This document shows positions 96 to 48,925 of a stretch of 50,021 nt of DNA, piece after piece. Source of the DNA: a virus (taxonomy: Duplodnaviria; Caudoviricetes); IMG/VR virus record IMGVR_UViG_3300033153_006092, positions 1 through 50,021 of that record, one strand, 5' to 3'. The notes below the pieces were generated by a model. The model ran no database searches, was not told the DNA's origin, and was given only the letters and a program-made list of their open reading frames with translations. Numbering within the stretch: the first letter of the stretch is position 1; each line of letters starts with the position of its first letter. The position numbers and the translations under genes were made by a program.

Positions 96-274
96 TCGAT
101 ATTACAACATCGGAAACGAGCAAAAATTTAGGCTATAAGAAACGCATTGATACTGCCAGTCTCACGCATTATCAACTTGCCGCCGGTGACGCGGTAACAG
201 TGGGAACTGCTGGCGGGAAAGTAGGAACTGGCGAGGTGCGTATAGTGTTATACTTTGTTTTAAGTGCACAATAA
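1..274 (+). CDS. C-terminal end of the tailspike protein, continuing from 48899-50021 across the junction
   Basis: The frame ...YDILYTEASSADAGVDIRIGRYQDGVALDDDYF...VLYFVLSAQ* is continuous with the ORF running off the right end; the listed 74..274 ORF is its tail. Confidence 0.85.
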   Translation, partial: DILYTEASSADAGVDIRIGRYQDGVALDDDYFDITTSETSKNLGYKKRIDTASLTHYQLAAGDAVTVGTAGGKVGTGEVRIVLYFVLSAQ

Positions 275-558
275 TGACAGTGAGGGCTTTAATGACTGAG
301 GAAGAAAGAATATTTATAGAAGGTTTATTTGATAACTTAAAAGAAGATATAAAAGAACTAAGGGGCGATGTAAAAAACTTGCCTTGTAGTGAGAGGGGTG
401 AGAGATTAAGTACATTAGAGGCTGTTCAAACTGCTAAAGATAAATACAATGATATAGCAAGGGAAAATAAAACACTTAGTATTAGAAAATGTCTTTTACT
501 ATTTGCTGTTTTTCAGCTTATATATATGGCGGTTAATTTATGGGTGAGTGCAAGATGA
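274..558 (+). CDS. Coiled-coil protein with C-terminal transmembrane helix (holin/XhlA-like lysis accessory)
   Basis: Heptad N-terminal part, hydrophobic CLLLFAVFQLIYMAVNLWV, position directly after the tail gene. Confidence 0.5.
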   Translation: MTVRALMTEEERIFIEGLFDNLKEDIKELRGDVKNLPCSERGERLSTLEAVQTAKDKYNDIARENKTLSIRKCLLLFAVFQLIYMAVNLWVSAR

Positions 559-1052
559 TGGATTTTGATATTTTAGCAGGTACAGGTAAACTTATTATAG
601 ACAATAAACATAGTTGGGGTGATCAACTTAGGATTGTTAATAAGTATAGTTATTGCCTAAAAATATTAAGGTTGAAATATCCTAATATAAAAGGTAGTTA
701 TCATAAACATCTTAAAAAGAGAGAAACGTGGTTTGTATTAGAAGGGGTTGTGTATGTTAAAATTCTTAGAAATGAATCTGATGGTATCGAATATTTAACT
801 TTATATCCTGGTGATAAATTAGATATAAGTGATGATAAACCTCACCAATTTTGGTGTTCTGTGCCGTCTATAATTATTGAAGTTTCTACCCATGATAATG
901 ATAAAGATACTTATAGGTATAATGAAAAGGATGGGGAGTTTTATAATGAAGATGGTGATAAATATATTTCTAAAAAGGATCAAATGAAGGCGTGGCATAA
1001 AGAGTTAGAAAATGATTATAGAAAACATATATTAGGATTTCCAAAACCATGA
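555..1052 (+). CDS. Cupin-fold protein (sugar/mannose-6-phosphate isomerase-like)
   Basis: Cupin motifs SYHKHLKKRETWFVLEG and LYPGDKLDI...PHQF...IIEVSTH; ATGA overlap with the upstream gene. Confidence 0.75.
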   Translation: MMDFDILAGTGKLIIDNKHSWGDQLRIVNKYSYCLKILRLKYPNIKGSYHKHLKKRETWFVLEGVVYVKILRNESDGIEYLTLYPGDKLDISDDKPHQFWCSVPSIIIEVSTHDNDKDTYRYNEKDGEFYNEDGDKYISKKDQMKAWHKELENDYRKHILGFPKP

Positions 1053-1237
1053 CAAAAGAACCATTGGGTTTACCAAAAGGTAGTATACGGGCAATAATAG
1101 CAGTACTGATTGTTGTGTCAGTAATTGTTGCAATTTTTATAGGTGAATCAGAAAGCGTTAAATCTCTTACTCCTATTGCCGGTATGGTAATTGGGTATTA
1201 CTTTGCACAAAGATCAAATAATAAAACAGGAGACTAA
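1049..1237 (+). CDS. Small two-TM membrane protein, putative holin
   Basis: PLGLPKGSIRA followed by two hydrophobic segments ending GYYF and a polar tail. Confidence 0.55.
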   Translation: MTKEPLGLPKGSIRAIIAVLIVVSVIVAIFIGESESVKSLTPIAGMVIGYYFAQRSNNKTGD

Positions 1238-1239
1238 AA

Positions 1240-2169
1240 ATGTTTTACAAAAAAGCGGATGGTAGTATTATAGATGAACAAGGAAATGCGGTCACAAATA
1301 TTGTATTAAACACAGATGGTAGTTATACAGATTCAGAAGGTAAAGTTGTTGAGGTACAAACAGAGGCATCTGCTCAACCAACAATAGCAGATTTACAAAA
1401 TGAGTTAATTGAGGTAAAACGGCAAAATACTTTATTGAAAGGGAAAGCGCAAGATTTTGATGTATTGATGCAGGATAGGGAATTTGCCCAATGGGCGTTA
1501 GATAGAAGTCAACGTGATCTATCTAATAAACCAACACAGCAGGTTCAGCAACCTGTAAATCAACAACAGCCAAATGATAATCCATTTGCAGAATACCAAG
1601 ATGCCGAAGGTTTGCAAACATTGACTAATACAATTACCCAGAATGTATTAGATGCAATTAGCCCACGTTTTGAAGCAATAGATAAAACAATAGGTCAGAA
1701 GTTTGAACCATTATTGCAAAATCTTTCACAAAATAGAATTGAAGCTGATTTTAATGCTTTAGTACAACAGGCTGCAACCAATAAAGAATTTTATCCTATT
1801 GATCCTACTTCGATTAGAAAACAAATAGATTATGAAAGGCAAAAAAATCCTAATTTAAATATGCAACAGGCGTATGATTTAACTTGTGCAACAATGAATA
1901 GAGAGGGGTTAATAACTCGACCTCCTATTCAGACAATGGGAAGCGGTTCTCAGGAAGGTGGTCAAGGAGGAAATATATTAACTAGACCTGCTGGTGGGCA
2001 AACCACTATAAAAGCTGATGCAGGTAAATCAACGTTGGACAAGGCATTAGACGCTAAAAATAAAGGTGGTGATGAAAATCAAAGGCGTAGTGTCAATGAT
2101 ATTATAGCTGAGGCTGCTAAACAGATGGAAGATAGTGGCAACCCGATTGATATTAGTGAATTATCTTAG
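1240..2169 (+). CDS. Putative capsid scaffolding protein
   Basis: Acidic, Q-rich, helical/low-complexity protein immediately upstream of the major capsid gene. Confidence 0.6.
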   Translation: MFYKKADGSIIDEQGNAVTNIVLNTDGSYTDSEGKVVEVQTEASAQPTIADLQNELIEVKRQNTLLKGKAQDFDVLMQDREFAQWALDRSQRDLSNKPTQQVQQPVNQQQPNDNPFAEYQDAEGLQTLTNTITQNVLDAISPRFEAIDKTIGQKFEPLLQNLSQNRIEADFNALVQQAATNKEFYPIDPTSIRKQIDYERQKNPNLNMQQAYDLTCATMNREGLITRPPIQTMGSGSQEGGQGGNILTRPAGGQTTIKADAGKSTLDKALDAKNKGGDENQRRSVNDIIAEAAKQMEDSGNPIDISELS

Positions 2170-2180
2170 GAGTAAAAATA

Positions 2181-3308
2181 ATGATACTGTTATTGGCTAT
2201 TTCTCTTATTGCATTTGGTATACTACTAAGTGTAGCTACCGCATATGCAGATATAACACAAGGCCAAAAAGATGAACTTCTAGCCACCACTTTACAGCTA
2301 CAAGAAACTGAGTTAATTAAACATACCTATTTGGAAAATCCTATATATGTTTTCTTTTCTAATAGTAGATATACTAAAAAAGTAAAAGGTGGTCATGAAA
2401 TTCGGTTTCCGGTTGTACTTGATAAATCGGACACTTTTGATTGGTTTGGTGTTGGAAGTACATTTAATCCACAACCTAAAAAGATATTAGGTTGGTCACA
2501 TACGGAATTAAAACAGGGTGCAGGTCATGTTACTTTTGAAGATGTAGAATTGTGGCAAGCCAGTGGCCCTGGTAATTTTGTAGGAATGGTAGAAGCAAAG
2601 ACTGAGGAACTTGAACAGTCTATAGGCGAGTCATTGAATTTGACTGCTTGGGGAGATGGAACAGAGGATGGTGGATTAGCACCTACTGGTTTGACTGGTC
2701 ATATTCCTAATCCGCCTACAAGTGGTACATATATGGGTCATGATTTGTCTACAGAAAATTGGGGTAGATGTTGGTATAATGATAATGAGACTATTGGCCC
2801 ACATTCATTGACAAGCCCAACTGGTAATGCCCCGCATACAGAAGGTGCAATAGGAGATATAAGTGATAGATATCCACTTATAATAGATTCTCTTAACCTT
2901 ATGTATGCTTCATGTGTTAGTAATAGTGATAATAAAAGTGATATTTTTCATATTACCGATTTGCAGACACAATTGTGGTATAAACAAATTCCATTTAGAT
3001 GCCCCGGTTTTGATATAGGTGTAACAGAGGGGCCATTTAATATTGGAATTGAAACTGCTCATTTTATGGGTTCGCCAATTATTCCAGATACAGTTGATAA
3101 TGGTGCAATAGAAGGCGAGTGGCGTATGGTTAATATGCGGTATTACAATATGTATATTGACACTGACCATTTCTTCAAATGGGTTGGGCCACGTTCTCCT
3201 TATAATGCTCTAAGAACTTCAAAGTATCTGGTTGTGCGTTTCCAATGGGTTAACAAATTCCCAAGAAAGCAAGGGCTTTTAGTCGGAATAGCTACTTGGC
3301 AGGCTTAA
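2181..3308 (+). CDS. Major capsid protein (HK97-type) with a 23-aa N-terminal hydrophobic leader
   Basis: ELLATTL...NP...KKVKGGHEIRFPV, LNLTAWGDGT...PTGL, FMGSPIIPD, RKQGLL resemble podoviral MCP motifs; synteny scaffold-MCP-decoration; AGGAG RBS before the ATG. Confidence 0.8.
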   Translation: MILLLAISLIAFGILLSVATAYADITQGQKDELLATTLQLQETELIKHTYLENPIYVFFSNSRYTKKVKGGHEIRFPVVLDKSDTFDWFGVGSTFNPQPKKILGWSHTELKQGAGHVTFEDVELWQASGPGNFVGMVEAKTEELEQSIGESLNLTAWGDGTEDGGLAPTGLTGHIPNPPTSGTYMGHDLSTENWGRCWYNDNETIGPHSLTSPTGNAPHTEGAIGDISDRYPLIIDSLNLMYASCVSNSDNKSDIFHITDLQTQLWYKQIPFRCPGFDIGVTEGPFNIGIETAHFMGSPIIPDTVDNGAIEGEWRMVNMRYYNMYIDTDHFFKWVGPRSPYNALRTSKYLVVRFQWVNKFPRKQGLLVGIATWQA

Positions 3309-4851: not shown

Positions 4852-5204
4852 TGATATTGACAATAGGAAAACAAAGAGCGGCATCTGTATTAACTAACAA
4901 TTCGTATATTACTCATCTTGCGGTAGGTGATGATGATACGGATGAGACAGCTGGTGATTTAGCTCTCGGTAATGAGATATACCGAGTTGCTTTAACTACG
5001 GTATCACAGAATGATCAGGTATGTTGGGGCGTTGCTACTATAACAGCTAGTGATATTGGTGCTGGTTCTTATACTATTAAAGAGTTCGGTTTTGTCGATG
5101 CGGCAAGTGGAGGCCATTTTCAATGCAGAGTGGTGTTAGATACAGGAATAACTATAACAGGCGCTCAGAAACTAATAATAGTATGGGGCGAAGTGTTTCC
5201 GTAA
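4851..5204 (+). CDS. Virion structural protein, tail-collar/fibre-attachment-like domain
   Basis: ITHLAVGD...LALGNEIYR...TIKEFGFVDAASGG pattern. Confidence 0.55.
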   Translation: MILTIGKQRAASVLTNNSYITHLAVGDDDTDETAGDLALGNEIYRVALTTVSQNDQVCWGVATITASDIGAGSYTIKEFGFVDAASGGHFQCRVVLDTGITITGAQKLIIVWGEVFP

Positions 5205-6172
5205 TAGAGAGAATAACCCGAGGTTTTGGTGATGGGATAATGCTTCGTCCTGCTATTATTGGATATATGAAAAAGTACCCTACTTATGATGTTAAGTTAC
5301 ATATAAGAGAACCAGAAGCATGTGTGTTTGAGGATATTGAAGGTTTAGATATTGTACCTATATCAACATTTTCTAAAAGTAAATCGGTTATAAGTGATAA
5401 AGATTCTATTACTAGAGCCAAAAGAAATAGATTAAAGCGTTATAATTATTCTAAACAACTTATAGAAGGTTATAATAATCCTATTATATATAGAGTATCC
5501 GAATCTTGCGCCAAGTATGAAATGGAACATATAGATAATGTTGATAAGTCTAGGCAAGAAATTTTTTGTGATGAACTTAATGTACAATTTGATATGGCAA
5601 ATTACAATGTTAAATTTTCTTTAGAAGAAGAACAATTTGCAGATGATTTTCTTGGTGGTATAAGTAGAGCTATTGGTATTCATATACAAACTGCAGATAG
5701 TTGGCGTGATTATAGATATATGTATTTAAGAAAGCGCCAAACAAAAATGTGGGATTTGGTAGATTATATAGCCAAAAGATTTAATGGTTATATAATAACT
5801 TTTGACAAAGATTGTAAATATGAAGGGAGGCAAAAGAATGTAAAATCTTTGGCTAATGTAACGTTTAGGCAGGCATGGGTTGTAATGTCTAGGATGCTTT
5901 TAGGTATTGGCCCAGATTCTGCTGGAATTCATGCTTTTGGTTCGACATTTGTTCCAACTTACGGATTATTTGGCCCGACTAATCCTAGACACAGGATGCT
6001 TTATCCTTACGTTGGTTGGCCAGATAAAGGAGATTGTCCATTTGGTAAACAATATTGTTGGTATAATTATTGTCAAAATAATGGAAAACCAATGGTATAT
6101 TGTTTGAATAGGCGGTCAGTTAAATACTATTGGGATGATATAAAGCGGAAAATGGGGAGGTTTATAAAATGA
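5183..6172 (+). CDS. Glycosyltransferase family 9 (heptosyltransferase-like)
   Basis: N-terminal RGFGDGIM; C-terminal IGPDSAGIHAFG...PTYGLFGPTNP. Start estimated. Confidence 0.85.
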   Translation: MGRSVSVIERITRGFGDGIMLRPAIIGYMKKYPTYDVKLHIREPEACVFEDIEGLDIVPISTFSKSKSVISDKDSITRAKRNRLKRYNYSKQLIEGYNNPIIYRVSESCAKYEMEHIDNVDKSRQEIFCDELNVQFDMANYNVKFSLEEEQFADDFLGGISRAIGIHIQTADSWRDYRYMYLRKRQTKMWDLVDYIAKRFNGYIITFDKDCKYEGRQKNVKSLANVTFRQAWVVMSRMLLGIGPDSAGIHAFGSTFVPTYGLFGPTNPRHRMLYPYVGWPDKGDCPFGKQYCWYNYCQNNGKPMVYCLNRRSVKYYWDDIKRKMGRFIK

Positions 6173-6852
6173 GATTTTTTAGGCGGTCACAGGTAAAACA
6201 AAGTTATATATCTTATGTTTCAGAGCGGTCTGTTAGAGGTTTACATGATACAATTTTAAGAACTGAAGAACCAAAATATTGTTTAGAAATAGGTTTGAAT
6301 GGTAAAAGTGAAGATTGTATTACATTAGATCTTGGTTCAAAAGCTGATATAGTTGGAGATATTAGAGGTGCTTTTGCACAACATGGTGGATATAAACCTG
6401 TTGAAGAAATTGAAAAATTGCCATTAGATTATTTTCATCTTATTAAAGCGGTGCATGTTATTGAGCATATAGAATGGTTGTATCAACAAGTAATGTTTGA
6501 CTGGTTTTTTGATTTAATTGCACCAGGCCACTATCTTTATGTAGATACGCCAAACTTAGATTATATTATTGAGATATATAATAATGGTATTCAGTCCATG
6601 AATAAAGGTAACAAGTTAGAATATCCAATGTCTGACCATCCAGATTTTACAAAAGATAGGTATATAGAGAATTTTACACCATGGGTTAATTATAAGATAT
6701 TTAGTGGTTGTAGTCCTGGTGATTATCATCATACCTGTTTGAATAGTATTTGGTTGGGTAATCTTCTACATGCCGCTGGTTTTGAAAATATAAAAATACA
6801 TAGTGGTAGGTCATTGATTGCTATTGCTATGCGACCGAAGGAGAGCTTGTAA
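6169..6852 (+). CDS. Class I SAM-dependent methyltransferase-like protein
   Basis: CLEIG, ADIVGDI, HVIEHI, LIAPGHYLYVDTPNL. Confidence 0.75.
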   Translation: MRFFRRSQVKQSYISYVSERSVRGLHDTILRTEEPKYCLEIGLNGKSEDCITLDLGSKADIVGDIRGAFAQHGGYKPVEEIEKLPLDYFHLIKAVHVIEHIEWLYQQVMFDWFFDLIAPGHYLYVDTPNLDYIIEIYNNGIQSMNKGNKLEYPMSDHPDFTKDRYIENFTPWVNYKIFSGCSPGDYHHTCLNSIWLGNLLHAAGFENIKIHSGRSLIAIAMRPKESL

Positions 6853-8285
6853 TGGCTATTAAATTAAATTGCGGTGCAGGCGGAGTTATTCTTTCAAAAG
6901 AAGATGGTTGGATAAATATTGATATTAGGCAATTAGATGGTATAGACCTGGTATTAGATTTGGAAAACAATGATTTTCCATACGAAGATAATTCGGTAGA
7001 TGAAATTAGGTTACAAGATTTTTTAGAACATTTGAGTAAAGATAGGCAATTACCGTTTTTAAATGAAGTACATAGAGTAATGAAATTAAATGGTAAATTA
7101 TTTATTCAGTTACCAGATTTGGAAACATTATCTAAACGGTATTGTAATGTTTTAGAAAACCCTACTAAGCTACAACACCCTTTAGATGCCTATCAATTAT
7201 CGAGTGCTTTATATGGTGGACAGGAATATGAAGGGAATTTTCATAAGTGGGGTTATGACCAATATACGCTTAGTCTTATATTAGAAGAAGTTGGGTTCTC
7301 AATTAGAGAGATAGGTTCTGACGGTGGTCAAAATTTGTTATGCCATGCTCAGAAAAGTCCTGCCGCATTTTATATAATGATTAGTGGTGGTTTGGGCGAT
7401 TGTTTACAGATATATTTCTCTAATCCACCATACTGTAATCATGAGGATTTAAAGGGAGTAAATTATTTTCCTACTGGTCAATTGTTGGCAAGTTTATGGC
7501 TTAAACGTTTGAAAAGTTTTAAGTTGAAACATCCTAATAAATCGGTGTATTTGATTATAGAATCACATAATCCTTCGGCTATAAGGTTCTTTGATAATGT
7601 ACCATATATAGAAGGTTGTATATCTAAACCTTGGGATTTACCTAAACCGTGGGAAGAAGATAAATGGAGTCAGGTGCATTTTGGTTTATACAATTTAGAA
7701 CATTCGTATAATCCAGAATTATATGAACCAGAAGAAGCCAAAGTATATTTGTCATCTTTAGAAGAAATGCAAGTAGATACTATTGTTAATAAGGGTGATT
7801 ATATTATTGTTCATCCATTTTCTGGCGTGTCTAGGGATAGGCAAGCTATTAACCAAGATCAGTATAAAGAGATTGTAAAGAAAATTATTAAGAAAGGTTT
7901 GAACGTTGTTGTTATAGGTGGTAGTTATAAGACTAATGTAGTTGGTAAGAAATATAATATAACAGAACAATTTGATATGAAGTGTGACGGTTTAATCAAT
8001 TTGGTGAATAAGAGTAGTATTGCTGTTACGGTTGAACTTATACATAGGGCAAAAGGTTTCATAGGAACTCATAGCTCTATGGTTCTTATGGCTTGGTATA
8101 AATCATTGCCAACAGTTTGTATTGTGCCAATGTACCATGATGGTGGTCAACCATGGGAAGAGTTTTTTGCCGATGAAGTTAATCCTACTACTTGGGGTAA
8201 TAGGCAACCATTTAATAAAACTGTCATGGTTGAAGATAGAGATATAGTTGATTTAGATGAAATAGTGGAGTGGGTGGTGAAATGA
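6852..8285 (+). CDS. Methyltransferase fused to a GT9-like glycosyltransferase
   Basis: KLNCGAG...GWINIDI...DFLEHL...HRVMKLNG (methyltransferase); GGLGD...IIVHPFS...GFIGTHSS (GT-B/GT9). Confidence 0.8.
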   Translation: MAIKLNCGAGGVILSKEDGWINIDIRQLDGIDLVLDLENNDFPYEDNSVDEIRLQDFLEHLSKDRQLPFLNEVHRVMKLNGKLFIQLPDLETLSKRYCNVLENPTKLQHPLDAYQLSSALYGGQEYEGNFHKWGYDQYTLSLILEEVGFSIREIGSDGGQNLLCHAQKSPAAFYIMISGGLGDCLQIYFSNPPYCNHEDLKGVNYFPTGQLLASLWLKRLKSFKLKHPNKSVYLIIESHNPSAIRFFDNVPYIEGCISKPWDLPKPWEEDKWSQVHFGLYNLEHSYNPELYEPEEAKVYLSSLEEMQVDTIVNKGDYIIVHPFSGVSRDRQAINQDQYKEIVKKIIKKGLNVVVIGGSYKTNVVGKKYNITEQFDMKCDGLINLVNKSSIAVTVELIHRAKGFIGTHSSMVLMAWYKSLPTVCIVPMYHDGGQPWEEFFADEVNPTTWGNRQPFNKTVMVEDRDIVDLDEIVEWVVK

Positions 8286-9328
8286 TATTAGGATTTTTAG
8301 GGTATGGAGAAGATAGTTTTTTCCATAGCGGAACAAATAAATGGATAGAGCCTAATGCTAACGATAGGTTTCCTAATATAGGTGTGTGGGGGCCGAATTC
8401 AAATGCTGTATATAGAAGGTTATATCCTAATGATCCATTTGTTATGTTAGTTACTAAAGACCCTAATCTTGAATTTGCTAATAGGTGTGATTTTATTATA
8501 TTTCAATCTTCTACAGGGCAAGACCCGTTATTCTTAGAACATTGCGATAAAATTGAAGTGCCTATAATTCATTGGCAACATGGTGGTTATGAAAATATGG
8601 TACAATTATCGTATGGTGCTGTTTTACGAAATAAGCAATGTATGGATAAATGTGATTTGGTTGTCACTACAGACCATAGATATGTGTCTCTTTATAAAAC
8701 GTGGACTAAAACACCTGTTATATATTGCCCGCTGCCTTATCCTGTTAATTATGCACTTAAAACTTTATCTAAAAGTGTAGATATTGAATATGATTTATTT
8801 ATACCGTATGGTATAAATATGACATATAATAATAGAAGAAATGGTTATGTCATGTCAGCGGTTGCTGATAAAATTATTACAAATGTAGAAAGTTTTAATA
8901 ATTGTTTAATGATAGATAGTGGTAATACTGATAAGTCGTGCGATTTTTTGCAACAAATGGGGTTCCAAAATATTACTATAATTGACCGTAAAAAATATAG
9001 TGAATATCTATTATCATTGAGTAGATGCAGGGTAATTATAAATTTAGATAGACACATGGCTTGTGGTAAGGTTGCTATTGATGCTGCTTTGGCTCGTAAA
9101 CCTGTTATAATGTCTAACCGAATTCCTTATGCCCAATATATATATAGTGGTATAAAATTACAAGACCCATTTGATGTTGATGCGGCATTGGCAACCGCAG
9201 AATTGATTCAACGAGGTGGGTGGGAACAGTCTTGGATAGATATGGCTTTTAACAGAGCACAGGATTTTAGTATGGAGAATGTTGGTAAGATATTGGAGGA
9301 AGCAGTTGGAAATCTTAAATTTAATTAG
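8282..9328 (+). CDS. GT-B fold glycosyltransferase (GT4-like)
   Basis: CGKVAIDAALARKPVIMS resembles the GT4 E-x7-E region; C-terminal AQDFSMENVG helix. Confidence 0.65.
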   Translation: MILGFLGYGEDSFFHSGTNKWIEPNANDRFPNIGVWGPNSNAVYRRLYPNDPFVMLVTKDPNLEFANRCDFIIFQSSTGQDPLFLEHCDKIEVPIIHWQHGGYENMVQLSYGAVLRNKQCMDKCDLVVTTDHRYVSLYKTWTKTPVIYCPLPYPVNYALKTLSKSVDIEYDLFIPYGINMTYNNRRNGYVMSAVADKIITNVESFNNCLMIDSGNTDKSCDFLQQMGFQNITIIDRKKYSEYLLSLSRCRVIINLDRHMACGKVAIDAALARKPVIMSNRIPYAQYIYSGIKLQDPFDVDAALATAELIQRGGWEQSWIDMAFNRAQDFSMENVGKILEEAVGNLKFN

Positions 9329-10076
9329 TGCAGGTGAATGGTTAAATGGGAAACGTAAGGCTACCTATGAATCTTATATACAATGGTCAAAAAATAATGA
9401 TAGTGTAATTCAAGTATCATATCCAAGAAGCGGCAGACATTGGATTGAATCAATAATAAAGTGGAATTTATTAGGCAAAGATGGTTGTGCGGATATACAA
9501 AACTTTGACCCAAATAATTCTAAACATTATTATTTTACTCATGTAAAAAATTGGCCGGCATTTGATGCTAATGGTAAATATGTTTATTTGATACGTGACC
9601 CAAGAGATGTATTTGTGTCCTTTATGTATTACCGAACTTGTATAAAACAGTCTTTGACAGTAGAACAATCTTTCAATGATTATGATTTTCTTGGTAAAGA
9701 GGTTAAGTCGTGGAAAAATATGTTACAGGTTTTTATTGAAACTGATTGTATTATTATTCAGTATGAAAGGATGTGTTTGTACCCTAAAATAGAATTGAAT
9801 AGGATAGCCAGATTTATTGGTGTAGATATGGTGGATAATATTGACTGCCGTGATAATGGTCATTTTATTTATTATAATCCAGATAAACCTTGTCAACCAA
9901 TAAAGAAACCTTTTGAGTCAAATATAGAGAGATATAATATCAGATGTTTGACATGGCAAAAAAATCCAAGATTTACCAAAAAACATTTTGATATTATTTG
10001 GGGTGCATTGAAAGATATAATACCATACTTTGGTTATTTAGAAAACGGTCATTCGCTAAATTTATTAGAAAGGTAA
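9306..10076 (+). CDS. PAPS-dependent sulfotransferase
   Basis: 5'-PSB loop SYPRSGRHW, 3'-PB motif LIRDPRDVFVS, IQYERM...IARFIG. TTG start inferred from the GGAGG RBS. Confidence 0.8.
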   Translation: MEILNLISAGEWLNGKRKATYESYIQWSKNNDSVIQVSYPRSGRHWIESIIKWNLLGKDGCADIQNFDPNNSKHYYFTHVKNWPAFDANGKYVYLIRDPRDVFVSFMYYRTCIKQSLTVEQSFNDYDFLGKEVKSWKNMLQVFIETDCIIIQYERMCLYPKIELNRIARFIGVDMVDNIDCRDNGHFIYYNPDKPCQPIKKPFESNIERYNIRCLTWQKNPRFTKKHFDIIWGALKDIIPYFGYLENGHSLNLLER

Positions 10077-10081
10077 AACTA

Positions 10082-10810
10082 GTGAGATTTTCTGTTATTA
10101 CTATTATTGCTAACCTAGATAAATATAGAAAATATAATTTTGATAAATGTGTTACACAATGGTTAAATCAAGACTTTGATGATTATGAATTTATATGCGT
10201 AGAAATGTCATATAAAAAAGATTTTTATATTCATGGTAATTATAATTACTATAGTGTGATTGGTGACGAATTCAAACGTGGTTGGTTGTTGAATGTTGGT
10301 GCAAAGAAATCTAAAGGCGATATATTAGTATTTGCTGATTCTGATATATTGGTACGAAAAGATTATTTAACTAAAGTTGACAATTGGTTTAAAATTGGTA
10401 TGAAAAGCGCAATAGGATTAAACCAATTGATTAGATTAAATCAAGATGGTTCAATTAAAACTTCTTGTATTGCTTCTATAAAAGGGGCGGCTGGCGGTAT
10501 AAATATATTTGATTCTCATTTCTTTTTTAAGTTATTTGGTGGTTGGAATGAAACGTTTACTTTTGGTGACGGTAATGATAATGATGGGATGTTCAGGGCA
10601 GAAGCCGCAGGTGGTCATGTAAAAATATTTCCAAGTCCAGTTATTCATCTTTGGCATCCTGGTAAAAAACATGGTATTAAAAATATGGAATTGTGGTTAT
10701 ATACACAACGGTATCCCGAAATAGTTACAGAAAAGATTTTGGAATTGGGTATTGGAAAAGACAAACCTACGGTTTATAATATTGAGGAATTGAAAAGGTT
10801 AACTAAATGA
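10082..10810 (+). CDS. GT-A fold glycosyltransferase (GT2 with GT7-like C-terminus)
   Basis: FSVIT, NVGAKKSKGDILVFADSD (DxD), GGWNETF...DND, HLWH. Confidence 0.85.
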   Translation: MRFSVITIIANLDKYRKYNFDKCVTQWLNQDFDDYEFICVEMSYKKDFYIHGNYNYYSVIGDEFKRGWLLNVGAKKSKGDILVFADSDILVRKDYLTKVDNWFKIGMKSAIGLNQLIRLNQDGSIKTSCIASIKGAAGGINIFDSHFFFKLFGGWNETFTFGDGNDNDGMFRAEAAGGHVKIFPSPVIHLWHPGKKHGIKNMELWLYTQRYPEIVTEKILELGIGKDKPTVYNIEELKRLTK

Positions 10811-11370
10811 ATATACAAGGATGGATGAGTCAATCAGAACTTATGTGGTTACAAACTATGTCAAAATCAATGCCATCTAATTCTTTAATAGTAGAAGTTG
10901 GAACATGGAAAGGCAGAAGTACGGCCGCTATATGCAATGCCTTAAATAAAAAGAGCACTTTTGTTACTATTGATACATGGTTAGGTAATAGTAATTTATT
11001 TATATATCAAAATTCATCAGCATCTTTAGTTACTGATATATTTTTAGAATTTTTAGATAATATGAAATTACTGGGTCATAATTTTAAGTGGTATAAAAAA
11101 AATACTTTTGGTTTATTTTATCTAAGAATGAAATCAGTTGAGGCCGCAAAATTATTCGATGATAAAAGTATTGATTGGTTGTTTTTAGATGGTAATCATA
11201 CAGAGGCAGATAAAGATTGTGATGCTTGGGGAGTAAAGATAAAGAGCGGCGGAGTTATATCCGGCCACGATTTTACAAATGACTTTATTAAATTGACTAC
11301 AGATGTGAAACAAAGGTACCCAAATTTATCAGTGGCAACGAATACAGGTATATGGTATTCAACAATTTAA
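10807..11370 (+). CDS. SAM-dependent methyltransferase (Methyltransf_24-like)
   Basis: VEVGTWKGRST, IDTW, LFLDGNH, GGVISGHDF. Confidence 0.85.
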   Translation: MNIQGWMSQSELMWLQTMSKSMPSNSLIVEVGTWKGRSTAAICNALNKKSTFVTIDTWLGNSNLFIYQNSSASLVTDIFLEFLDNMKLLGHNFKWYKKNTFGLFYLRMKSVEAAKLFDDKSIDWLFLDGNHTEADKDCDAWGVKIKSGGVISGHDFTNDFIKLTTDVKQRYPNLSVATNTGIWYSTI

Positions 11371-11383
11371 GGAAAGAAAATAA

Positions 11384-12376
11384 ATGAAAGATAATGAATA
11401 TTCATTATACAAATCTTTGCATCATCAATATGCGCTTAAAAATAAAATACCAGTATTATGCTATTTTTTTATAACGCATAAATGCAATAATAAATGTCCA
11501 ACTTGTTCTTCTCGATATGGTCAAAAGTTTGATGAAAATATAGAAATGCCTATTGAAGATGCGTTACCTTGTTTAATAAAATTGAAAGAGTTAGGACTAA
11601 AAGCTATTTCATTATCTGGCGGTGAGCCGTTGATGCATTCTAATTTTGGTGGTTTTGTAAGAGCCATAATTGGTATAGGATTAGATATTGCGGTTATAAC
11701 AAATGGTAGATTATTATCTAAGAAATATTTAGATGTTTTGAAATGGCTATCTTGGATTAGAGTTTCCATAAATGCAGTAAACCCAGATATATATAAATTG
11801 GTTCATGGTGCAAAAATGCCAGAGAGGTATTTTCTTAATCTAAAAGAGACTATTCCTAAGCTTAGAAAATACGGTGTAACTACTGGTGCTAGTTTTTTAA
11901 TAAATAAAAATAATATACAAGATATGCTTGATGCTGTAATAATGGCAAAAGAAATTGGTTTTGAAACATTTAGATTTAATTATACAAGAGATAGAGATGG
12001 TCTTATCTTTTACAAAGATGAAGATCTTTACAAGATAAAAGATAATTTATCTATCGCTATAAATTATAGTTGTGATAGTTTTAGAGTGCTTCCTTTGTCT
12101 GATAGGTTATTATATAAAATTAGTAAACCGTATACACATTGTTACCAAAGTGATATATCCTTATGTATAACTGCCGATGGCGGTGTATATGCTTGTCCAT
12201 TTTTGGCTAATAATCCACGTGCATTTTATGGTTCGATATATGAAAAATCTATAGATTATATTTGGTTAAACAAAAAAGAAATAGATGTGACTAAATGTCC
12301 TATATGTTGGCAAACAAAGAAGAATGAATTTATGGCATACTTAATGTCTAAACCTACTCATGTTAATTTTGTATAA
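11384..12376 (+). CDS. Radical SAM enzyme with SPASM/twitch domain
   Basis: CNNKCPTC, SGGEPL, ITNG, C-terminal C...DGGVYAC...CPIC. Confidence 0.9.
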   Translation: MKDNEYSLYKSLHHQYALKNKIPVLCYFFITHKCNNKCPTCSSRYGQKFDENIEMPIEDALPCLIKLKELGLKAISLSGGEPLMHSNFGGFVRAIIGIGLDIAVITNGRLLSKKYLDVLKWLSWIRVSINAVNPDIYKLVHGAKMPERYFLNLKETIPKLRKYGVTTGASFLINKNNIQDMLDAVIMAKEIGFETFRFNYTRDRDGLIFYKDEDLYKIKDNLSIAINYSCDSFRVLPLSDRLLYKISKPYTHCYQSDISLCITADGGVYACPFLANNPRAFYGSIYEKSIDYIWLNKKEIDVTKCPICWQTKKNEFMAYLMSKPTHVNFV

Positions 12377-12386
12377 GGTGTAAACA

Positions 12387-12572
12387 ATGGCTACATTGAT
12401 ATGGCATAAGGTTGATACATTCTTATCAAAATTACGGTCTTGTCAAAGATGTTATAATCAATCTGGTGATGGTATGATATACTCTTTAGTAGTATACGAC
12501 TACCTTTATTTGACAGAAATTACAACTATTAGTTTAAAGGAAATTGATTCAACAACAGGAGTTAGATGGTAA
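12387..12572 (+). CDS. Small hypothetical protein
   Basis: 61 aa with AAGGTG RBS, fills the gap in the operon. Confidence 0.4.
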   Translation: MATLIWHKVDTFLSKLRSCQRCYNQSGDGMIYSLVVYDYLYLTEITTISLKEIDSTTGVRW

Positions 12573-21049: not shown

Positions 21050-21535
21050 TCAATTTATTTTCCACCATTTTTTGTTAATAGCTGGCCAATATCTAATATC
21101 TTTCAATGGCCTAAAATTAGGGTCTCGTTTTGCTAAATCTTTTGGATAATGTTTAACTAGAATATCCCTGGCTCTTGCATCTGTATAACCTAGTGCCCTT
21201 AATAACTTGTAAGCCACACTGACAGACCTATTTCTACCAGCCGCACAATGAATAAGTAAATGATTTTTACCATCATTCATTGGATGTAGAACCCAACAAC
21301 CAAACGTAGTACAGGTATCCCAAAATTCTGAACCTTTTGGTTGTCCATCGTCTGGTGTATAAAAATGCAAAACTATTATCTCATTGTTAGGTATAAACCT
21401 TATATCACAATCTCTAGTCAAACTAATGATATGAGTTATACCCATATTTAGAACATCGTTCATTGTAGGTTGCTCGTTAATAGCACCACCAACATATATA
21501 TTTTCTTCTGTTCTTAACCTTTGTATTCTTGGCAT
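21050..21535 (-). CDS. Dual-specificity/tyrosine phosphatase
   Basis: LLIHCAAGRNRS (CX5R) and upstream PDD acid loop. Confidence 0.9.
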   Translation of the reverse strand: MPRIQRLRTEENIYVGGAINEQPTMNDVLNMGITHIISLTRDCDIRFIPNNEIIVLHFYTPDDGQPKGSEFWDTCTTFGCWVLHPMNDGKNHLLIHCAAGRNRSVSVAYKLLRALGYTDARARDILVKHYPKDLAKRDPNFRPLKDIRYWPAINKKWWKIN

Positions 21536-41613: not shown

Positions 41614-42147
41614 ATGACGGTCTTTATAAATTGGTTTGACAAACTATTGAGTATGATATTAGTAATGTTTTCTAGCCTTGCGACTACTTTTGTTTATGAT
41701 GCAGACGGCGAACATAGTAATATCAGAGTTGCATATACTGATCCATGTGGCGGGGCATTTACTTTGTCAGCAGGTTCTAAAAATGGCCCGCATGGCTGGA
41801 TAGATTTGAGAAAATGTGGAAAACCTTATGTTGACTGGGTATTAACTACTTATGTTAGTTCTGGTGTAAGGGATGTTGCAGTAAGTATCGATTATGGGCA
41901 AAGGCTCGGCAATGATATGATAATTACTATAACTCAGAAGCAACGAAGTACAGATGCGCCGCTTGATTATGGCCCTAAGCGTGGATATATGAGAATGATG
42001 TTAAATAGACAATATGGTTCTTATGCAAGAATTAGAGAGGTTCAGAATGATGGCGATTGTCTTGTTGCAATACAGTCGCTTTCGCCTTCTACTATGAAAC
42101 CGATTAAATCTATAGGTACTATTGATAATAATGTAGAGGTGATATAA
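41614..42147 (+). CDS. Putative virion beta-sandwich protein with hydrophobic leader
   Basis: LLSMILVMFSSLA leader; beta-rich body. Confidence 0.5.
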   Translation: MTVFINWFDKLLSMILVMFSSLATTFVYDADGEHSNIRVAYTDPCGGAFTLSAGSKNGPHGWIDLRKCGKPYVDWVLTTYVSSGVRDVAVSIDYGQRLGNDMIITITQKQRSTDAPLDYGPKRGYMRMMLNRQYGSYARIREVQNDGDCLVAIQSLSPSTMKPIKSIGTIDNNVEVI

Positions 42148-42617
42148 TGAAAAGGTTAGCAGTTATTATAATACTTCTATTATGTGTAACATTTGGTGTA
42201 GACTCCCAAACTACATATAGAAAGAATTTTCCTGATAGAGGTATAGCCATTACGGGTTATGCCAACCTTAGAACTGCGGCTGTATTAACTACTTCTTATG
42301 TTAATACATCGGCAGTTAAATTTGACCAATATAAGGAACTTTGTTTACTATTTGATATAGTTCAAGGCGGGTTAACATCGTTTGAATATAAGATTTGGAT
42401 TAGCAAAGATGGTAATAAGTGGTATCAGGAGGCTACTGAATCAGTTGCCTCTGGTGTTATTACTGATGCGCCATGTTATTATACTTGTGCTTTATCTAGT
42501 GATGTGGCATATTATAAAGTTATTCCATTTAATGGCAGGTGGATCAAGTTACAGGTTAAAGGTACTGGCATTGTAACAGGGTCAAGTTGTTCGGTACAAT
42601 TGATGGGTTCTTATTAA
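42147..42617 (+). CDS. Signal-peptide beta-sandwich protein, paralog of the protease C-terminal domain
   Basis: MKRLAVIIILLLCVTFGVDS leader; collinear similarity with 44823-45248. Confidence 0.7.
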   Translation: MKRLAVIIILLLCVTFGVDSQTTYRKNFPDRGIAITGYANLRTAAVLTTSYVNTSAVKFDQYKELCLLFDIVQGGLTSFEYKIWISKDGNKWYQEATESVASGVITDAPCYYTCALSSDVAYYKVIPFNGRWIKLQVKGTGIVTGSSCSVQLMGSY

Positions 42618-45248
42618 ATGCGAAAAATCTTATCCTTTATTATAATAGCAATATTATGTGTGTCTGTGTCTGCGGATAAGCCACAGAAGAAGTTTTTTGC
42701 CGAGGATCATATATTAGTAAAATTTAGGAAAACTGCTAATATTGCAAAGATTCATGGAAGAACTAAGGCTAAAAGTATTAAGATTAGAAGAGATATTCAT
42801 CATGTTTCTATTCCTAGGGGTAAAAATGCACAGGTATTAGTGAATCAGTATAAAAATATGCCGGAAGTAGAATATGCCGAATTGGATTATTATGCTTATC
42901 CTGAGCATATACCGAATGATACTAATTTTAATATACAATGGGCATTATCTGGTTCTACTTATGACATAAAGGCTGATGATGCTTGGGATACCACAACTGG
43001 TGATGCGTCTATTATAATTGCAATACTTGATACTGGTATATTAACTACTCACGAAGATATAACTGGTAAGGTTGTAGCCAGTATTAATTATACTGATTCT
43101 ACTTTGACTGATAGTGTAGGCCATGGAACTCACGTAGCAGGTATAACTGCCGCAAATACTAATAATGCCAAAGGAATTGCGGGGGTTGGGTATGATTGTA
43201 AACTTCTAAATGTTAAAGTTATAAATAATGATGGTTTTGGTACATATTCTTGGATTTCTGATGGAATAAAATATGCCGCAGATTATGGTGCTCATGTTAT
43301 AAATTTGAGTCTTTCTGGCAAATATTATTCGTATACCATGGAACAAGCGGTTAATTATGCTTGGAATAAAGGTTGTGTTATTGTAGCCGCCGCAGGAAAT
43401 CAAGCTACTTCTAACAAAAGGTATCCAGCCGCTTTTGCTAATTGTATGTCTGTTGGTGCTGTCGATAGCGATGGAGATATTTGTAGTTGGTCAAATTATG
43501 GTACTTATGTAGATGTATTGGCCCCCGGAGATACTATTCTTTCTACAATAAAGAGTGGTAGTTATAGCACTAAGAGCGGTACATCCATGGCGTGCCCGCA
43601 TGTTTCAGGATTAGCCGGTCTCTTATATTCTATGTCTTATGGTACAAATGAGAGTATAAGAGATAGAATACAAGATACTTCTGACGGGTATGTTTTTAGT
43701 GATTATGGCAGGATAGATGCAGATGCGGCAGTTGCTGGCGCCGTACCAACTTTAAGTTCTATAGTGGTTACGCCAGATGGATATTCGATGCCGGCTACTA
43801 ATACTCAACAGTATACCGCTACTGGTACATATTCTGATAGTTCGACTATGGATATTACTGGTAGTGTTACATGGGCTAGTGCTACTCCTGCTGTTGCTAC
43901 TATTACTGCTGCTGGTTTGGCAACTGGCATTAGTGCTGGCGACTCTATTATATCTGCTACATTAGGTGCGGTTAGTGATAATACAACTTTGACAATTACA
44001 GCGGCTACATTAAGTTCTATAGCTGTTACTCCTGCCGGGTCGACTATTGAGATTGGTTCACAGTTGCAATATACGGCAACTGGCACATATTCAGATGCTA
44101 GTACATCTGATATAACTACCGAAGTTGCGTGGACATCTTCTAATGCTGGTGTTAGTATTGATGCTAATGGATTGGCTACTAGTTTAGATAGTTGTAGTAC
44201 TATAATTACTGCAACATTGGGCGCTAAAAGTGGCAATACGACTTTGACTGTTACTGAGTCGGCGCTGATTTCTATTTCAGTTATACCTAGTTCTATTTCA
44301 ATAGGTGTTACTAATACTAAGCAATTTGTTGCTAAAGGTACATATTCAGATAATAGTAAGGTTATTATAACAGATATAGTTGACTGGTTAAGTTCTTCTA
44401 CTGGCGTGGCAACAATAAATTCCTCTGGCGTTGCTACCGGGGTGGGTGCAGGCAGTACAATAATCTCTGCTAAGTTAGGCGAAGTAACCGGGTATGCCAC
44501 ATTAACAGTATCTGCTTCCGCACCCACTCTTTCCTCAATATCTGTAACTCCGGCTAGTTATACAATATCTATTGGTGCTATTAGAAGCTATACATCTATA
44601 GCCAATTACTCAGATTCTAGTACATTAGATGTTACGGCTAACGCAGTATGGGCTACTTCTAATGCTCTTGTAGCTTCTATATCTGGGCATTTGGCAACTG
44701 GAGTTGCGGATGGCACGGCATATATAACAGCTACTTATGGTGGCAAAACAAGTAATAATGCTTTATTAAGGGTATCAACTAGGTCTATCACTGAAACAGG
44801 TTCACAATCTGCATATCGTTATCAGTTTTCTAAAATTGGTTATCCAATTACAGGTTATACGAATCTTAGGGCTGCTGCTACATTATCAAATCTTTATGTT
44901 GATACAGATATTATAAAATTTGACGAATATAAAAGTATTGGTATATTATTTGATATAACGGCAGGTGGTTTAACTTCTGTGGATTATATAATTTGGACAT
45001 CGTTGGATGGTTATAATTGGTTTCAAGAAGCTGGTGAAGATATTGAATCTGGGGTTATAATAGATATGCCGAGATTCAATTCATTACCTTGTTATTTAGA
45101 TGCAGAATATTATCCGCAAACCGGTGATAGTTTTTCTTATTTTAAGATTGTTCCATATTATGGTAGATATTTGAAATTAACAGTTAAGGGTACTGGAGAT
45201 GTTACTGGTTCTAGCCTATCTGTTCAAGCAATGGGAGCATATCAATGA
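42618..45248 (+). CDS. S8 subtilase (thermitase-like) with signal peptide, prodomain, four Big_2 Ig repeats and C-terminal beta-sandwich
   Basis: AILDTG, GHGTHVAG, AAAGN, SGTSMACPHV; four LSSIxVTP...YTATGTYSD...W repeats. Confidence 0.92.
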   Translation: MRKILSFIIIAILCVSVSADKPQKKFFAEDHILVKFRKTANIAKIHGRTKAKSIKIRRDIHHVSIPRGKNAQVLVNQYKNMPEVEYAELDYYAYPEHIPNDTNFNIQWALSGSTYDIKADDAWDTTTGDASIIIAILDTGILTTHEDITGKVVASINYTDSTLTDSVGHGTHVAGITAANTNNAKGIAGVGYDCKLLNVKVINNDGFGTYSWISDGIKYAADYGAHVINLSLSGKYYSYTMEQAVNYAWNKGCVIVAAAGNQATSNKRYPAAFANCMSVGAVDSDGDICSWSNYGTYVDVLAPGDTILSTIKSGSYSTKSGTSMACPHVSGLAGLLYSMSYGTNESIRDRIQDTSDGYVFSDYGRIDADAAVAGAVPTLSSIVVTPDGYSMPATNTQQYTATGTYSDSSTMDITGSVTWASATPAVATITAAGLATGISAGDSIISATLGAVSDNTTLTITAATLSSIAVTPAGSTIEIGSQLQYTATGTYSDASTSDITTEVAWTSSNAGVSIDANGLATSLDSCSTIITATLGAKSGNTTLTVTESALISISVIPSSISIGVTNTKQFVAKGTYSDNSKVIITDIVDWLSSSTGVATINSSGVATGVGAGSTIISAKLGEVTGYATLTVSASAPTLSSISVTPASYTISIGAIRSYTSIANYSDSSTLDVTANAVWATSNALVASISGHLATGVADGTAYITATYGGKTSNNALLRVSTRSITETGSQSAYRYQFSKIGYPITGYTNLRAAATLSNLYVDTDIIKFDEYKSIGILFDITAGGLTSVDYIIWTSLDGYNWFQEAGEDIESGVIIDMPRFNSLPCYLDAEYYPQTGDSFSYFKIVPYYGRYLKLTVKGTGDVTGSSLSVQAMGAYQ

Positions 45249-47440
45249 AAAAATATTTGTGTTTAATATCTTGTATAATAATAATATTGTGTTATACGGC
45301 TCTGGTTGTTGGTCAGGATAGAGGTTCCAGAAGTCCTAGAGTACCTGACTCTACTACAATAGATGGTGTAGATTCCGGTAGTTTTTTACGCTCTGATCAA
45401 TCAGATGTACATACCTCTGGCGTACTTACTTTGCCGCAGGTAGAAATATCTACATATTGGCGTAGTAAATACCCTTATATAGATGTTACTCATTCAGATT
45501 TTGGTGCAGTTGGCAATGGCGTTGCGGATGATAGAGCTGCTATAGCAGCGGCTGATACTGCCGCTGTTTTGGCAGGCGTTCCATTGTTATTCGCAAATGG
45601 CGATTATAAAATTTCATCGGATATAACCATAGCAAGCGATCTCATCCTTTATCAGGGGGCATTGATAACACCTGATGCCGGTGATACTGTAACGATAAAT
45701 GGGCATATAGATGCTGGCACTTGGTGTATATTTGCGGGTGATGGTTCTATTGCAGGCACTCCCAAGAATGATTTTGTGCGACCAGAATGGTGGGGCGCAG
45801 TGGCTGACGGTTCTACTGATTGCGCTGACGCTTTTGAGAAGGCGATTTTGTTCGCTCATGCGAATAAAGTAGGTGCGGTACAATTATCAGCGGGCGTATA
45901 TTATATTGACAGCGCAAAGACTTTTACAAACGTTAGAGAGGTAACTATACGCGGCACTACTACGAAGCCACAATATACAAGTTCCAGAACGGCAGGTTCT
46001 GCTATAGTATTTAACGGTATTGCCACAGATACGCCAGGATGGAAATTCACAACTTGTAGAGGTTTGGCATTCAAGGATTTTTGGATGTATACCAATGGCA
46101 CAAAGGCGCACTCTGGTATATATCTTGATCAAACGGCAACATCAGTTTTTGACGGCGTAAATATACAGGATTTTACTACAGCGTCAGTGTACATAGATAC
46201 CTCATTTAGTTTAACGTTCCAAAATTGCACATTTTCTTCCAGTGATGCAGGGGTACGTTCTGCTGGTACATGCCAAAATATTACTTTCTTGGGCTGCTCT
46301 TTAATACAAAACACCACCTGTGGAGCCTGGGTGTATGGACAAAATTACACTTTTATTGGTTGTGATTTTGAGGGACAACCGAGAGGAATTGACCAAGAGT
46401 CCTCAGTTGGTAGAGTCGTCAGTAGGGGATGGCTGGTAGAGGGCAATTATTTTGAGGCGATGACTGATAATGCTGTAATGTATTTGGTATTTCATGATTA
46501 TAGTCAATTTGGCCCAGCTTATTTATCTGATTCGGCATACTATATATATTTAAATTCATCCGACCATAATGTTGTAGTAAATTGGAGGGGTGATGTTAAT
46601 ATACAAAGCGCATCGACTGATAATACAATAGTTCATGTCGCTGGCACAGTTACAGATGATGGCGTTGATACTATACAATTAGCTGATATAGACGAGTATT
46701 ATTTACGCAAGGATGGCGCAGTTGCGCTTACAGACCATTGGAAAGCAGGAACGAAGGGCTTACAAATTGCAGGTTTAGGTGTGTCTAAGACAGGTGCAAA
46801 CTACGGCGATGAAGTAGTCTCTAACGGGACTTTTGATAGTGATACTACTGGTTGGACGGCTGTAGTTTGTACGTTGTCAAGCGAGGCAGGCGGACAGAGC
46901 GGCAACTGTTTACAGATACTTAATGCTGCTGGAGGCGGTGGATATGAAGCGCAAGCGAGGCAGGAGATAGCAGTAATTCCATTTTTACGATACAAATTAT
47001 CATTCTATTTCAAAAAAGGCACTGGCTCTTATGGTCGTGTATGGGTGGACAGTACGGAATTTTCACGTAGTCCTACATCCGGTGATTTATATTCTACAGG
47101 TGCACTTTCCGATGTGACATGGACTGAGTATACTGGCGAATTTGTGCCAACAGGTAGTAGTATTTTTCTTATGTTGGAAAGTCATTCGCCTTCAAAAACT
47201 GCTCTATTCGACGAGGTGACTATCAAGCCGATCATAGCTGGCGATCTGGCTGTAGGCAAGGATTTGTATGTGGGTGGCGACTTGACAGTTACTGGCGATT
47301 TTATCACTCCTTATGCCAATGCCGTAACGGTTAGTTCTTCTGGCGCAGATTATACTACTATACAGGCAGCGTTAGACGCCAATGATGCGGGAACGCTGGT
47401 GTTGGTTTATCCGGGTACATACACGGATGACACTATAAAT
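45245..47440 (+). CDS. Tailspike segment 1 (signal peptide, beta-helix 1, CBM-like domain, start of beta-helix 2); frame breaks near 47440, annotated stop at 47671
   Basis: DGVDSGSFLRSD, FGAVGNGVADD, EWWGAVADG, NGTFDSDTTGW, YTTIQAALDA...PGTY. Confidence 0.8.
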
Positions 47441-48925
47441 CGATACTCAGATATGCAATTATGGGGCTTATACGGGCTGTCGGATAGAAAATATCAAGAT
47501 GACCATGACTGGGCCGACTACGGCAAAGACTATTATTACCGGCTCCGGTTCGTTGAGGATGCGTTTTGTGCATCTGGGTCTAGTCTGTGCGACGGATATT
47601 GCAGGGGCGCAACCTTCATGTATCGCAGGGACAGGCGATATAAAGATGCACTTTGGTACATTGGATTATGATAATACAGGGGAGACGGTTGCTGGCATCA
47701 AATCTCCGGTTGTCTTAGGTACAGGGTCAAATGTCGTATTAAATGAAGTTGATATTGATGTAGATACTCAGGGTGATGCTGCGGCCTCCACCACTGCCTA
47801 TGGCATCAGCACCGGAAAGGTTGAGTTTAGCCGGTGTGAAATTAACGTAACTAATATCCCTGAGACGCCGGGGTCGGGATTGGAAGATACCTATACTGTA
47901 GGGATTGCATATATTACCGATAGCGGCGAACTTGAAATTATTGATAACAATGTTCACGTTAATAACGACGGTTCGACAGGCATTGGTATGTATATTGGCG
48001 GAACGGTAAGTGCAAGAGTTGTTGGAGGGCACTTGCACGTTGAATCCACTTCTGGGACGGCTAACAGTTATTATATCGCAGCCGCCGGTGCGACGGTCAT
48101 CTCTCAGATTGCTGACATTATTGCCGCCGATGGCATAAATAACGCAGGCGGTGGTACATATTCTTATGTTCATTCACAATCTAACGCCAATTGGGAAATA
48201 TCGGGTGATCTGGCTGTAGGGAACGACGCTACCATACTGGGACACCTGACGCCGAAAGGCGATAATATCTATAACGTGCAGGGGTTGAGCTATGGAGCAT
48301 TGGGAGATGGCAGCAATGATGATACTGCGGCAATACAGGCGGCGATTGATGACGCTAATACAGCAGGCGGCGGGATAATATTTTTTCCGAAAGGAACGTA
48401 CAAAATCAGTTCTTCGCTCACGCTATATAGCAATATTATTCTGCAAGGCGTTGGCGGCAGTTCTATAATCAGTCTTGCCATTGGCAATGACGCCATAGCA
48501 GCAACCGGAACAGCATCAGGTTCAGGGCTTGCTCTGGCTTCTGACGCTGACGCAAAGCAGTTTGATGTGGTACTGGCTGATGCAAGTTCTCTATCAGCAG
48601 ATGATTGGATTCGGATATACTCAGACGATGCTTTTGACGGTTCAGCAACGCAAACGCAGTCGGAAATTAGGCAGATTGCCAGTATAGCAGGGAATACATT
48701 GACGCTTGCCGAAAGACTTGCCGCTTCTTACACAGTCGTCAACTCTGCAGAAGTTGAATTATTGACAATGGTGGAAAATATTACTGTGAGGAATCTGAAA
48801 TTTCTCGGCGGTGGCGATGGTGAGAATCAGTATGGGATGACATTTACATATTGTCGCAATCTCAAAATCACAAATTGTGATATTACAGATTTTTATAATC
48901 GTGGGATTCAACTCTGGAGTTGTGT
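47439..48925 (+). CDS. Tailspike segment 2 (+1 frame; rest of beta-helix 2 and start of beta-helix 3)
   Basis: Frame open from 47439 (DTQICNYGAYTGCRIENIK...); YGALGDGSNDDTAAIQAAID...FFPKGTY. Confidence 0.75.

Follow-up and report, generated by a model that had tools for sequence, protein, structure and literature searches.

No viral shells have been studied better than capsids of the HK97 fold, which are described as assembling in soluble form in the cytoplasm. Examined here is the major capsid protein (MCP) gene at positions 2181..3308 (+ strand) of IMG/VR virus record IMGVR_UViG_3300033153_006092 (Duplodnaviria; Caudoviricetes), a complete 50,021-bp virus genome with terminal repeats which, at its full length, is referred to below as the window. 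The encoded protein of 375 amino acids begins with an uncharged, transmembrane-grade hydrophobic leader (residues 1-23; 2181..2249, + strand), which is tentatively interpreted from its sequence properties as a membrane-association module, possibly acting in its long forms as a head anchor whose N-terminus crosses to the outside of the membrane (N-out). The protein has the fold, the gene order of scaffold followed by coat and the N-arm helix preceding the E-loop in common with the scaffold-dependent HK97-fold capsids of tailed phages (Mic1, 6j3q; A-1(L), 7f38; SU10, 7z48; PHROG 9953), but a hydrophobic N-terminal extension is present in none of 146 distant relatives.

N-terminal elements that govern head assembly are known from HK97 gp5 (delta domain) and SPP1 gp13 (helix alpha1*), in both of which a helical piece lies on the inner face of the procapsid. 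The HK97 delta domain is later cleaved. The N-terminal element of SPP1 gp13 is later refolded (PMC6813328). The delta domain and alpha1* are soluble and specific, whereas the leader described here is uncharged, transmembrane-grade and hypervariable, and occurs together with a separate scaffold gene. Regarding capsid proteins with features of membrane insertion, the procoat proteins of filamentous phages (M13 pVIII, Pf3 coat) have a hydrophobic leader, a small-x-small site and an acidic flank, as is the case here; filamentous coats are tiny and extruded through the membrane, whereas the passenger here is a shell protein of 352 residues and a basic n-region is absent from all 21 leaders found. 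The signal-arrest-release (SAR) domains of phage endolysins are N-terminal hydrophobic helices able to sit in the membrane and then leave it without proteolysis, and their partly Gly/Ala/Ser/Thr-rich composition resembles that of the short leaders described below; SAR domains have a basic N-terminus and a periplasmic catalytic domain, whereas the body of the protein here must stay in the cytoplasm. A precedent for head assembly attached to the cytoplasmic membrane is T4, where proheads start on the membrane-bound portal and initiation involves the gp20 portal, gp40 and YidC (PMC9958956). Attachment in T4 is mediated by the portal and a chaperone, the coat protein having no transmembrane segment for this purpose, and T4 uses a prohead protease of its own to remove the coat propeptide, whereas none was found here in searches for the S78 and S49 families, the T4-type family not being searched. 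Literature searches, mostly at the level of abstracts, turned up no account of a tailed-phage coat protein with a leader of transmembrane or signal-like type.

Regarding the identity of the gene, the assignment of the open reading frame (ORF) 2181..3308 as an HK97-fold capsid protein is secure, with agreement of PHROG, PDB profile, AlphaFold2 (AF2) and Foldseek results. The best family match was PHROG 9953 'major head protein' (residues 32-368, E 4.1e-28), while no Pfam family matched the ORF, and tblastn against GenBank phages detected distant capsid genes only, those of Myxococcus phage Mx9 and of Brucella phages, with identities of 23-29%. In the PDB, the cyanophage capsids Mic1 (6j3q, 1.2e-13) and A-1(L) (7f38, 1e-11) were matched by a profile built from 150 relatives. 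The AF2 model obtained with a 150-row alignment, on which the structural conclusions are based, had a predicted local distance difference test score (pLDDT) of 91.1 and a predicted template modelling score (pTM) of 0.83, and the best 50 Foldseek matches listed against the PDB were all HK97-fold capsids or encapsulin shells, among them A-1(L) (3.5e-11), gene transfer agent (GTA; 1.2e-10), HK97 Head II (2.7e-9) and the SU10 capsid, which agrees with the fold originally assumed. An earlier AF2 model made with just 20 close homologs (pLDDT 57.5), not used for these conclusions, had already given HK97 matches in Foldseek. The genome further contains the terminase gene terL at 38056, a portal gene at 39541 and an adaptor gene at 12566-13276, portal and adaptor both being of the SU10 type. 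Directly upstream of the MCP gene lies a gene for a scaffold-like protein of 309 amino acids (1240..2169, + strand), syntenic in relatives, without a family match or a hydrophobic leader, the scaffold function of which is suggested by position and composition only. No prophage relatives were detected among 185,579 species genomes searched.

The leader of the window has no charged residue among its 23, an apolar run of 23 residues and a best 19-residue Kyte-Doolittle mean of 2.79. Its dG19, a Hessa-type free energy (dG) summed over a 19-residue window, is -3.7 kcal/mol, while the corresponding values are +18 for the scaffold, +27 for the portal and +15 for the product of the 290-aa gene downstream of the capsid gene. 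The ATG is preceded at a distance of 8 nt by the Shine-Dalgarno (SD) sequence AGGAG (2168..2172, + strand), which overlaps the TAG stop codon (2167-2169) of the scaffold-like gene, this gene ending 11 nt 5' of the capsid start. Between the ATG and the conserved N-arm the only start candidate (ATG, GTG or TTG) is a single TTG at codon 5, inside the leader, and the junction and N-arm therefore cannot be produced without the leader. Internal initiation giving a leaderless isoform was considered and rejected, as the window has no internal start of this kind and the internal ATGs of the related loci L005 and L006 lack an SD sequence. Thus the original prediction was accurate in describing the first 23 codons of the ORF as an uncharged hydrophobic leader free of K/R, with a good AGGAG ribosome binding site, with translation starting upstream of the hydrophobic stretch and no further Met before the conserved motif (neither ATG nor GTG occurs there), and in noting that scaffold and portal have no such leader.

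In the AF2 model the leader is helical (block-mean pLDDT 92 for residues 1-10 and 83 for residues 11-20) and forms with the N-arm a single continuous helix from residue 2 to residue 50. The two are linked by the acidic junction D-I-T-Q-G-Q-K-D-E (2250..2276, + strand; clade consensus DITQSQxDE), which has a small residue at -1 and is a possible hinge or cleavage site because confidence in the N-terminal helix is lowest there (residues 21-30, with a block-mean pLDDT of 68). The N-arm helix proper follows at residues 33-50 (2277..2330, + strand) and contains the ...ATTL... motif, near which distant leaderless capsid proteins begin. Prediction of a complex between the scaffold (alignment A3) and coat residues 1-36 gave a score of 0.00 with controls not run, and counts neither for nor against binding.

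Investigation of relatives by a word-indexed search revealed 19 close capsid homologs of 49-85% identity, and in 17 of the 18 with an intact N-terminus a hydrophobic stretch of 14-26 residues precedes DITQSQxDE, the exception being P0020. With the addition of loci from IMG/VR viral contigs (one) and metagenome contigs (seven), a leader is present in 21 of the 24 clade members of known N-terminus, while P0020, L004 and L007 are leaderless; the N-terminally truncated P0013 and the C-terminal fragment P0023 are excluded from these counts, and the start sites of P0002-P0008, P0010-P0012, P0015-P0018 and P0020-P0022 rest on database gene calls. A purine-rich SD sequence lies 6-10 nt before the leader ATG in all seven leader-bearing loci available at the DNA level, and the start codon of the two leaderless loci has an in-frame stop codon 1-5 codons ahead of it. 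When 1.84 billion representatives were searched exhaustively with a profile, the clade proved small, with four matches below 1e-30, and behind it came a large coat protein family with members about 320 amino acids long. These distant proteins start about 8-10 residues before the TTL motif, in accordance with the earlier statement that related MCPs begin near it, and in the 146 examined no window of 19 residues at the N-terminus reaches a dG below 0 (the lowest value being +8.7), so that the hydrophobicity of the leader is beyond chance.

In a tree of 28 rows from which the leader residues had been removed, with five distant proteins as the outgroup, all 19 leader-bearing rows were united (Shimodaira-Hasegawa-like approximate likelihood ratio test, SH-aLRT, 92) and the leaderless P0020 and L004 were basal; the tree does not include the fragments P0013, P0023, P0027, L007x and L008x, of which the last three are retained in the leader counts. 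The leader is present in all 19 rows of the leader clade, down to 48-49% identity, and absent from the sister protein P0022. This distribution together with the tree indicates that the leader is a clade-specific gain.

Two classes of leader can be distinguished: ten long leaders, including that of the window, with dG19 of -0.9 to -4.9, and 11 short leaders with dG19 of +2.7 to +12.3. The helical hydrophobic moment is 0.16-0.39 in the short and 0.03-0.16 in the long leaders; apolar runs extend over 6-23 residues across all leaders and 6-14 in the short ones, which are partly rich in Gly, Ala, Ser and Thr. The leader evolves fast and only its hydrophobicity is kept. At least eight changes between the states none, short and long are required on the 28-row tree, and leaders differ in both length and sequence between P0001 and P0002, the mature parts of which are 94% identical over the tree columns, and between P0008 and L002, the mature parts of which are nearly identical. 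P0002, the closest homolog, which has a short and not a long leader, is missing some 32 residues of its central part (alignment A1 columns 151-182), possibly an assembly artefact since the contig is just 1.3 kb long. In the leader codons T makes up 0.62 of second positions, compared to 0.26 in the rest of the gene, while third positions have 0.41 in both; because the enrichment is confined to codon position 2, selection acts on amino-acid character, and selection for U-rich mRNA is ruled out. Four of the 21 leaders (P0009, P0015, P0019 and P0027) have Met at -2, the position at which leaderless relatives start, which looks like a relic of an older start codon. Regarding the L006 coat gene (2333-3273), its ORF stops at 94 amino acids and is identical to P0027, while tblastn similarity runs to query residue 324, suggesting a frameshift or stop in the contig.

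The explanation ranked first for these features is that the N-arm of an HK97-fold coat protein has acquired a membrane-association module. Long leaders, those of this phage and nine relatives, would insert as a single transmembrane helix with the uncharged N-terminus crossing the bilayer (N-out, 'head-anchored') and the capsid fold staying in the cytoplasm, while the 11 short leaders would form an amphipathic helix lying in the membrane interface. In either form, newly made coat protein would be retained at high local concentration on the inner membrane, at its cytoplasmic face, coupling head assembly to the membrane, with later release or cleavage possibly occurring at the junction of the small residue and D-I-T-Q. 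The dG19 of the long leaders equals or exceeds the hydrophobicity of real membrane segments of the genome, and these leaders are more hydrophobic than two of the three signal peptides encoded in it. According to the positive-inside rule, the K/R residues that follow the hydrophobic core in five of the ten long leaders would read as a C-terminus on the inside (C-in). The uncharged first six residues appear to answer the requirement of an N-terminus that crosses the membrane or is buried in lipid, and the fast turnover of a segment whose hydrophobicity is kept seems typical of lipid-facing segments and not of a specific protein contact. The T4 precedent and the small membrane proteins encoded near the scaffold and coat genes, with the endolysin gene located elsewhere, also speak for this reading. 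This explanation is placed first because export is contradicted by the missing n-region, and because an interior contact misfits both the turnover and the uncharged tip.

Several observations weigh against a membrane anchor. Eleven of the 21 leaders are too short or too polar for a membrane span, and since short and long forms interconvert between near-identical proteins, the function they share may not need one. The leader of the window has no flanking K/R and is followed by 15 residues of net charge -2, so that the charge rules leave its N-out orientation unfixed. Procapsids of known structure have the coat N-terminus on their inner side, where it contacts scaffold (SPP1; PMC6813328); a lipid anchor on the interior face would need release ahead of shell closure, and a phage protease that could bring this about was not found in the families searched. 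Small membrane proteins encoded upstream of the scaffold and coat genes are present in the leaderless L004 and L007 as well, and therefore do not track the leader and represent context, not proof. The N-out anchor suggested in the original prediction suits the long leaders, with their transmembrane-grade hydrophobicity, uncharged tip and, in half of them, K/R after the core, and suits poorly the short leaders and the charge pattern of the window leader, while the proposal that the leader is removed later has no pointer beyond the small residue at -1.

The interior position of the coat N-terminus at the scaffold-binding site of SPP1 procapsids would suit a somewhat unlikely alternative in which the leader has no membrane role and extends the N-arm inside the procapsid, bundling under capsomers or touching scaffold or portal as a miniature delta domain, to be buried or trimmed in the virion. 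The continuity of leader and N-arm in the AF2 helix is in keeping with this, and leaders of 14-18 amino acids, found in half of the clade, cannot span a membrane, so that a common function is easier to picture as a protein contact. Wholly different leaders on proteins at least 94% identical in their mature part would be unexpected for a specific interface, however, and the same type of scaffold C-terminus is found in leaderless relatives; an interior helix also leaves unexplained the absence of charge from the first six residues in all 21 leaders. Furthermore, at least 19 residues with a dG of -3.7 leave the ribosome first, and from the preference of the signal recognition particle (SRP) their capture for membrane targeting would be expected. 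If the leader were instead a near-neutral extension, produced by an upstream shift of the start codon and tolerated by a flexible coat N-terminus, then the extreme variation in length and sequence, the existence of basal clade members and of P0022 that manage without it, and the Met at -2 in four leaders would be readily accommodated. This is improbable in view of the non-random composition with T enriched at codon position 2 only, the uncharged first six residues (21/21) and the retention of the leader in all 19 rows of its clade, and an unselected transmembrane-grade segment on the most abundant protein of the virion should carry a cost.

Export of some or all of the coat protein by means of a genuine Sec signal peptide, cut by host signal peptidase I, was the other possibility raised originally, and it is very improbable. 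Assuming the cleavage point from the conserved junction, a hydrophobic core is followed by residues resembling a (-3,-1) pattern, with A/V/I/L at -3 in 21 of 21 leaders and A/S/G/T at -1 in 19, and the 15 residues after the junction, which would be the early mature region, are acidic (net -1 to -4 across leaders). A long hydrophobic core has been reported to compensate for a missing basic n-region, which also counts in favour of export. None of the 21 leaders has K/R in its first five residues, and none has any charge in its first six, whereas the three consecutive genes of the same genome that encode canonical Sec-type signal peptides (starts 42147, 42618 and 45245; 42147..47671, + strand) each have two K/R among the first five residues; two of these three signal peptides have dG19 of about +3. 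K/R does occur later in nine of the 21 leaders, including the five long leaders mentioned above, where it would fall in the c-region of a signal peptide, and the short leaders offer just 6-14 consecutive apolar residues. The protein behind the leader is an HK97 shell protein, modelled with confidence and encoded beside a scaffold-like gene, with portal and terminase in the genome, and packaging requires that an HK97-type shell encounter DNA and ATP, which it does in the cytoplasm. On these features the leader appears not to be a classical Sec signal. Tat, lipoprotein and prepilin signals were considered by eye only and set aside, neither a twin-arginine motif nor a Cys at the junction nor a short basic prepilin leader being seen.

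Regarding enzymes that could remove the leader, six-frame family searches of the complete genome, in which the controls fired, detected no Peptidase_S78, Peptidase_S49, Rhomboid or Peptidase_S26, with the T4-type prohead protease family not searched. A phage rhomboid was accordingly dismissed as the leader-removing enzyme, and the only protease found in the genome is an S8 subtilase that has its own export signal.

As an extension of the proposed membrane association, head assembly might be membrane-templated through the coat protein, with all subunits head-anchored first and shells nucleating on or carrying lipid, and such a module might have arisen independently in several unrelated lineages of tailed phages; this broader proposal is quite doubtful. 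If true, HK97-type capsids would have a recurrent and undescribed way of forming. The description of assembly as soluble and cytoplasmic would be contradicted by a transmembrane-grade segment on each coat subunit, and a leader kept across the clade would imply that current models lack a membrane-linked step, be it in targeting, storage, timing or release. Leaders of this kind make capsid genes resemble those of secreted or membrane proteins to annotation pipelines, and need handling when such shells are expressed as nanocontainers.

The three genes with signal peptides follow the portal gene and encode a 156-aa protein, an 876-aa S8 subtilase with a Fervidolysin-type prodomain and four Big_2 (Ig-like) domains, and an 808-aa tailspike-like protein. 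Proteins with signal peptides and basic starts are encoded at the equivalent place in L001 (855 aa), L004 (126 aa) and L005 (751 aa, tailspike-like). A 177-aa protein without a known family (41614-42147), encoded a short distance beyond the portal gene, also has a hydrophobic start with no K/R in the first five residues, and has D9 and K10.

Regarding the small membrane proteins, these are encoded upstream of the scaffold and coat genes in all six loci with enough sequence. In the window they comprise a 94-aa protein with a C-terminal transmembrane segment (274..558, + strand), the architecture of which recurs upstream of the scaffold gene in L001, L004, L005, L006 and L007, and a 62-aa membrane protein whose gene immediately precedes that of the scaffold (1049..1237, + strand), with a long hydrophobic stretch at residues 6-37 and a second segment as read by eye. 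Clear homologs of the 62-aa protein were found in L005 and L006; L004 and L008 do not have it at this place. The corresponding regions of the relatives are L001 4211-4450, L004 4363-4701, L005 2303-2825, L006 1002-1452 and L007 735-1226. The proteins could be an assembly factor or a lysis component. Co-occurrence of a small membrane protein with the leader was considered and set aside as unclean, with the membrane protein missing in the long-leader locus L008 and a different one present in the leaderless L007.

Lysis genes appear to be distant from the head module, judging from the position of a Peptidase_M15_3 endolysin candidate (24409-24762, - strand) among minus-strand genes; just downstream of it lies an 81-aa ORF with a C-terminal hydrophobic segment (24047-24292). 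Between the head genes and the adaptor gene, the region 5123-12376 contains a methyltransferase cluster, a GT9-like domain, a sulfotransferase, a GT2-like gene and a radical SAM/SPASM enzyme. A weak match to a dual-specificity phosphatase catalytic domain, below the Pfam cut-off (E 7.8e-06), was detected at 21050-21535 on the minus strand.

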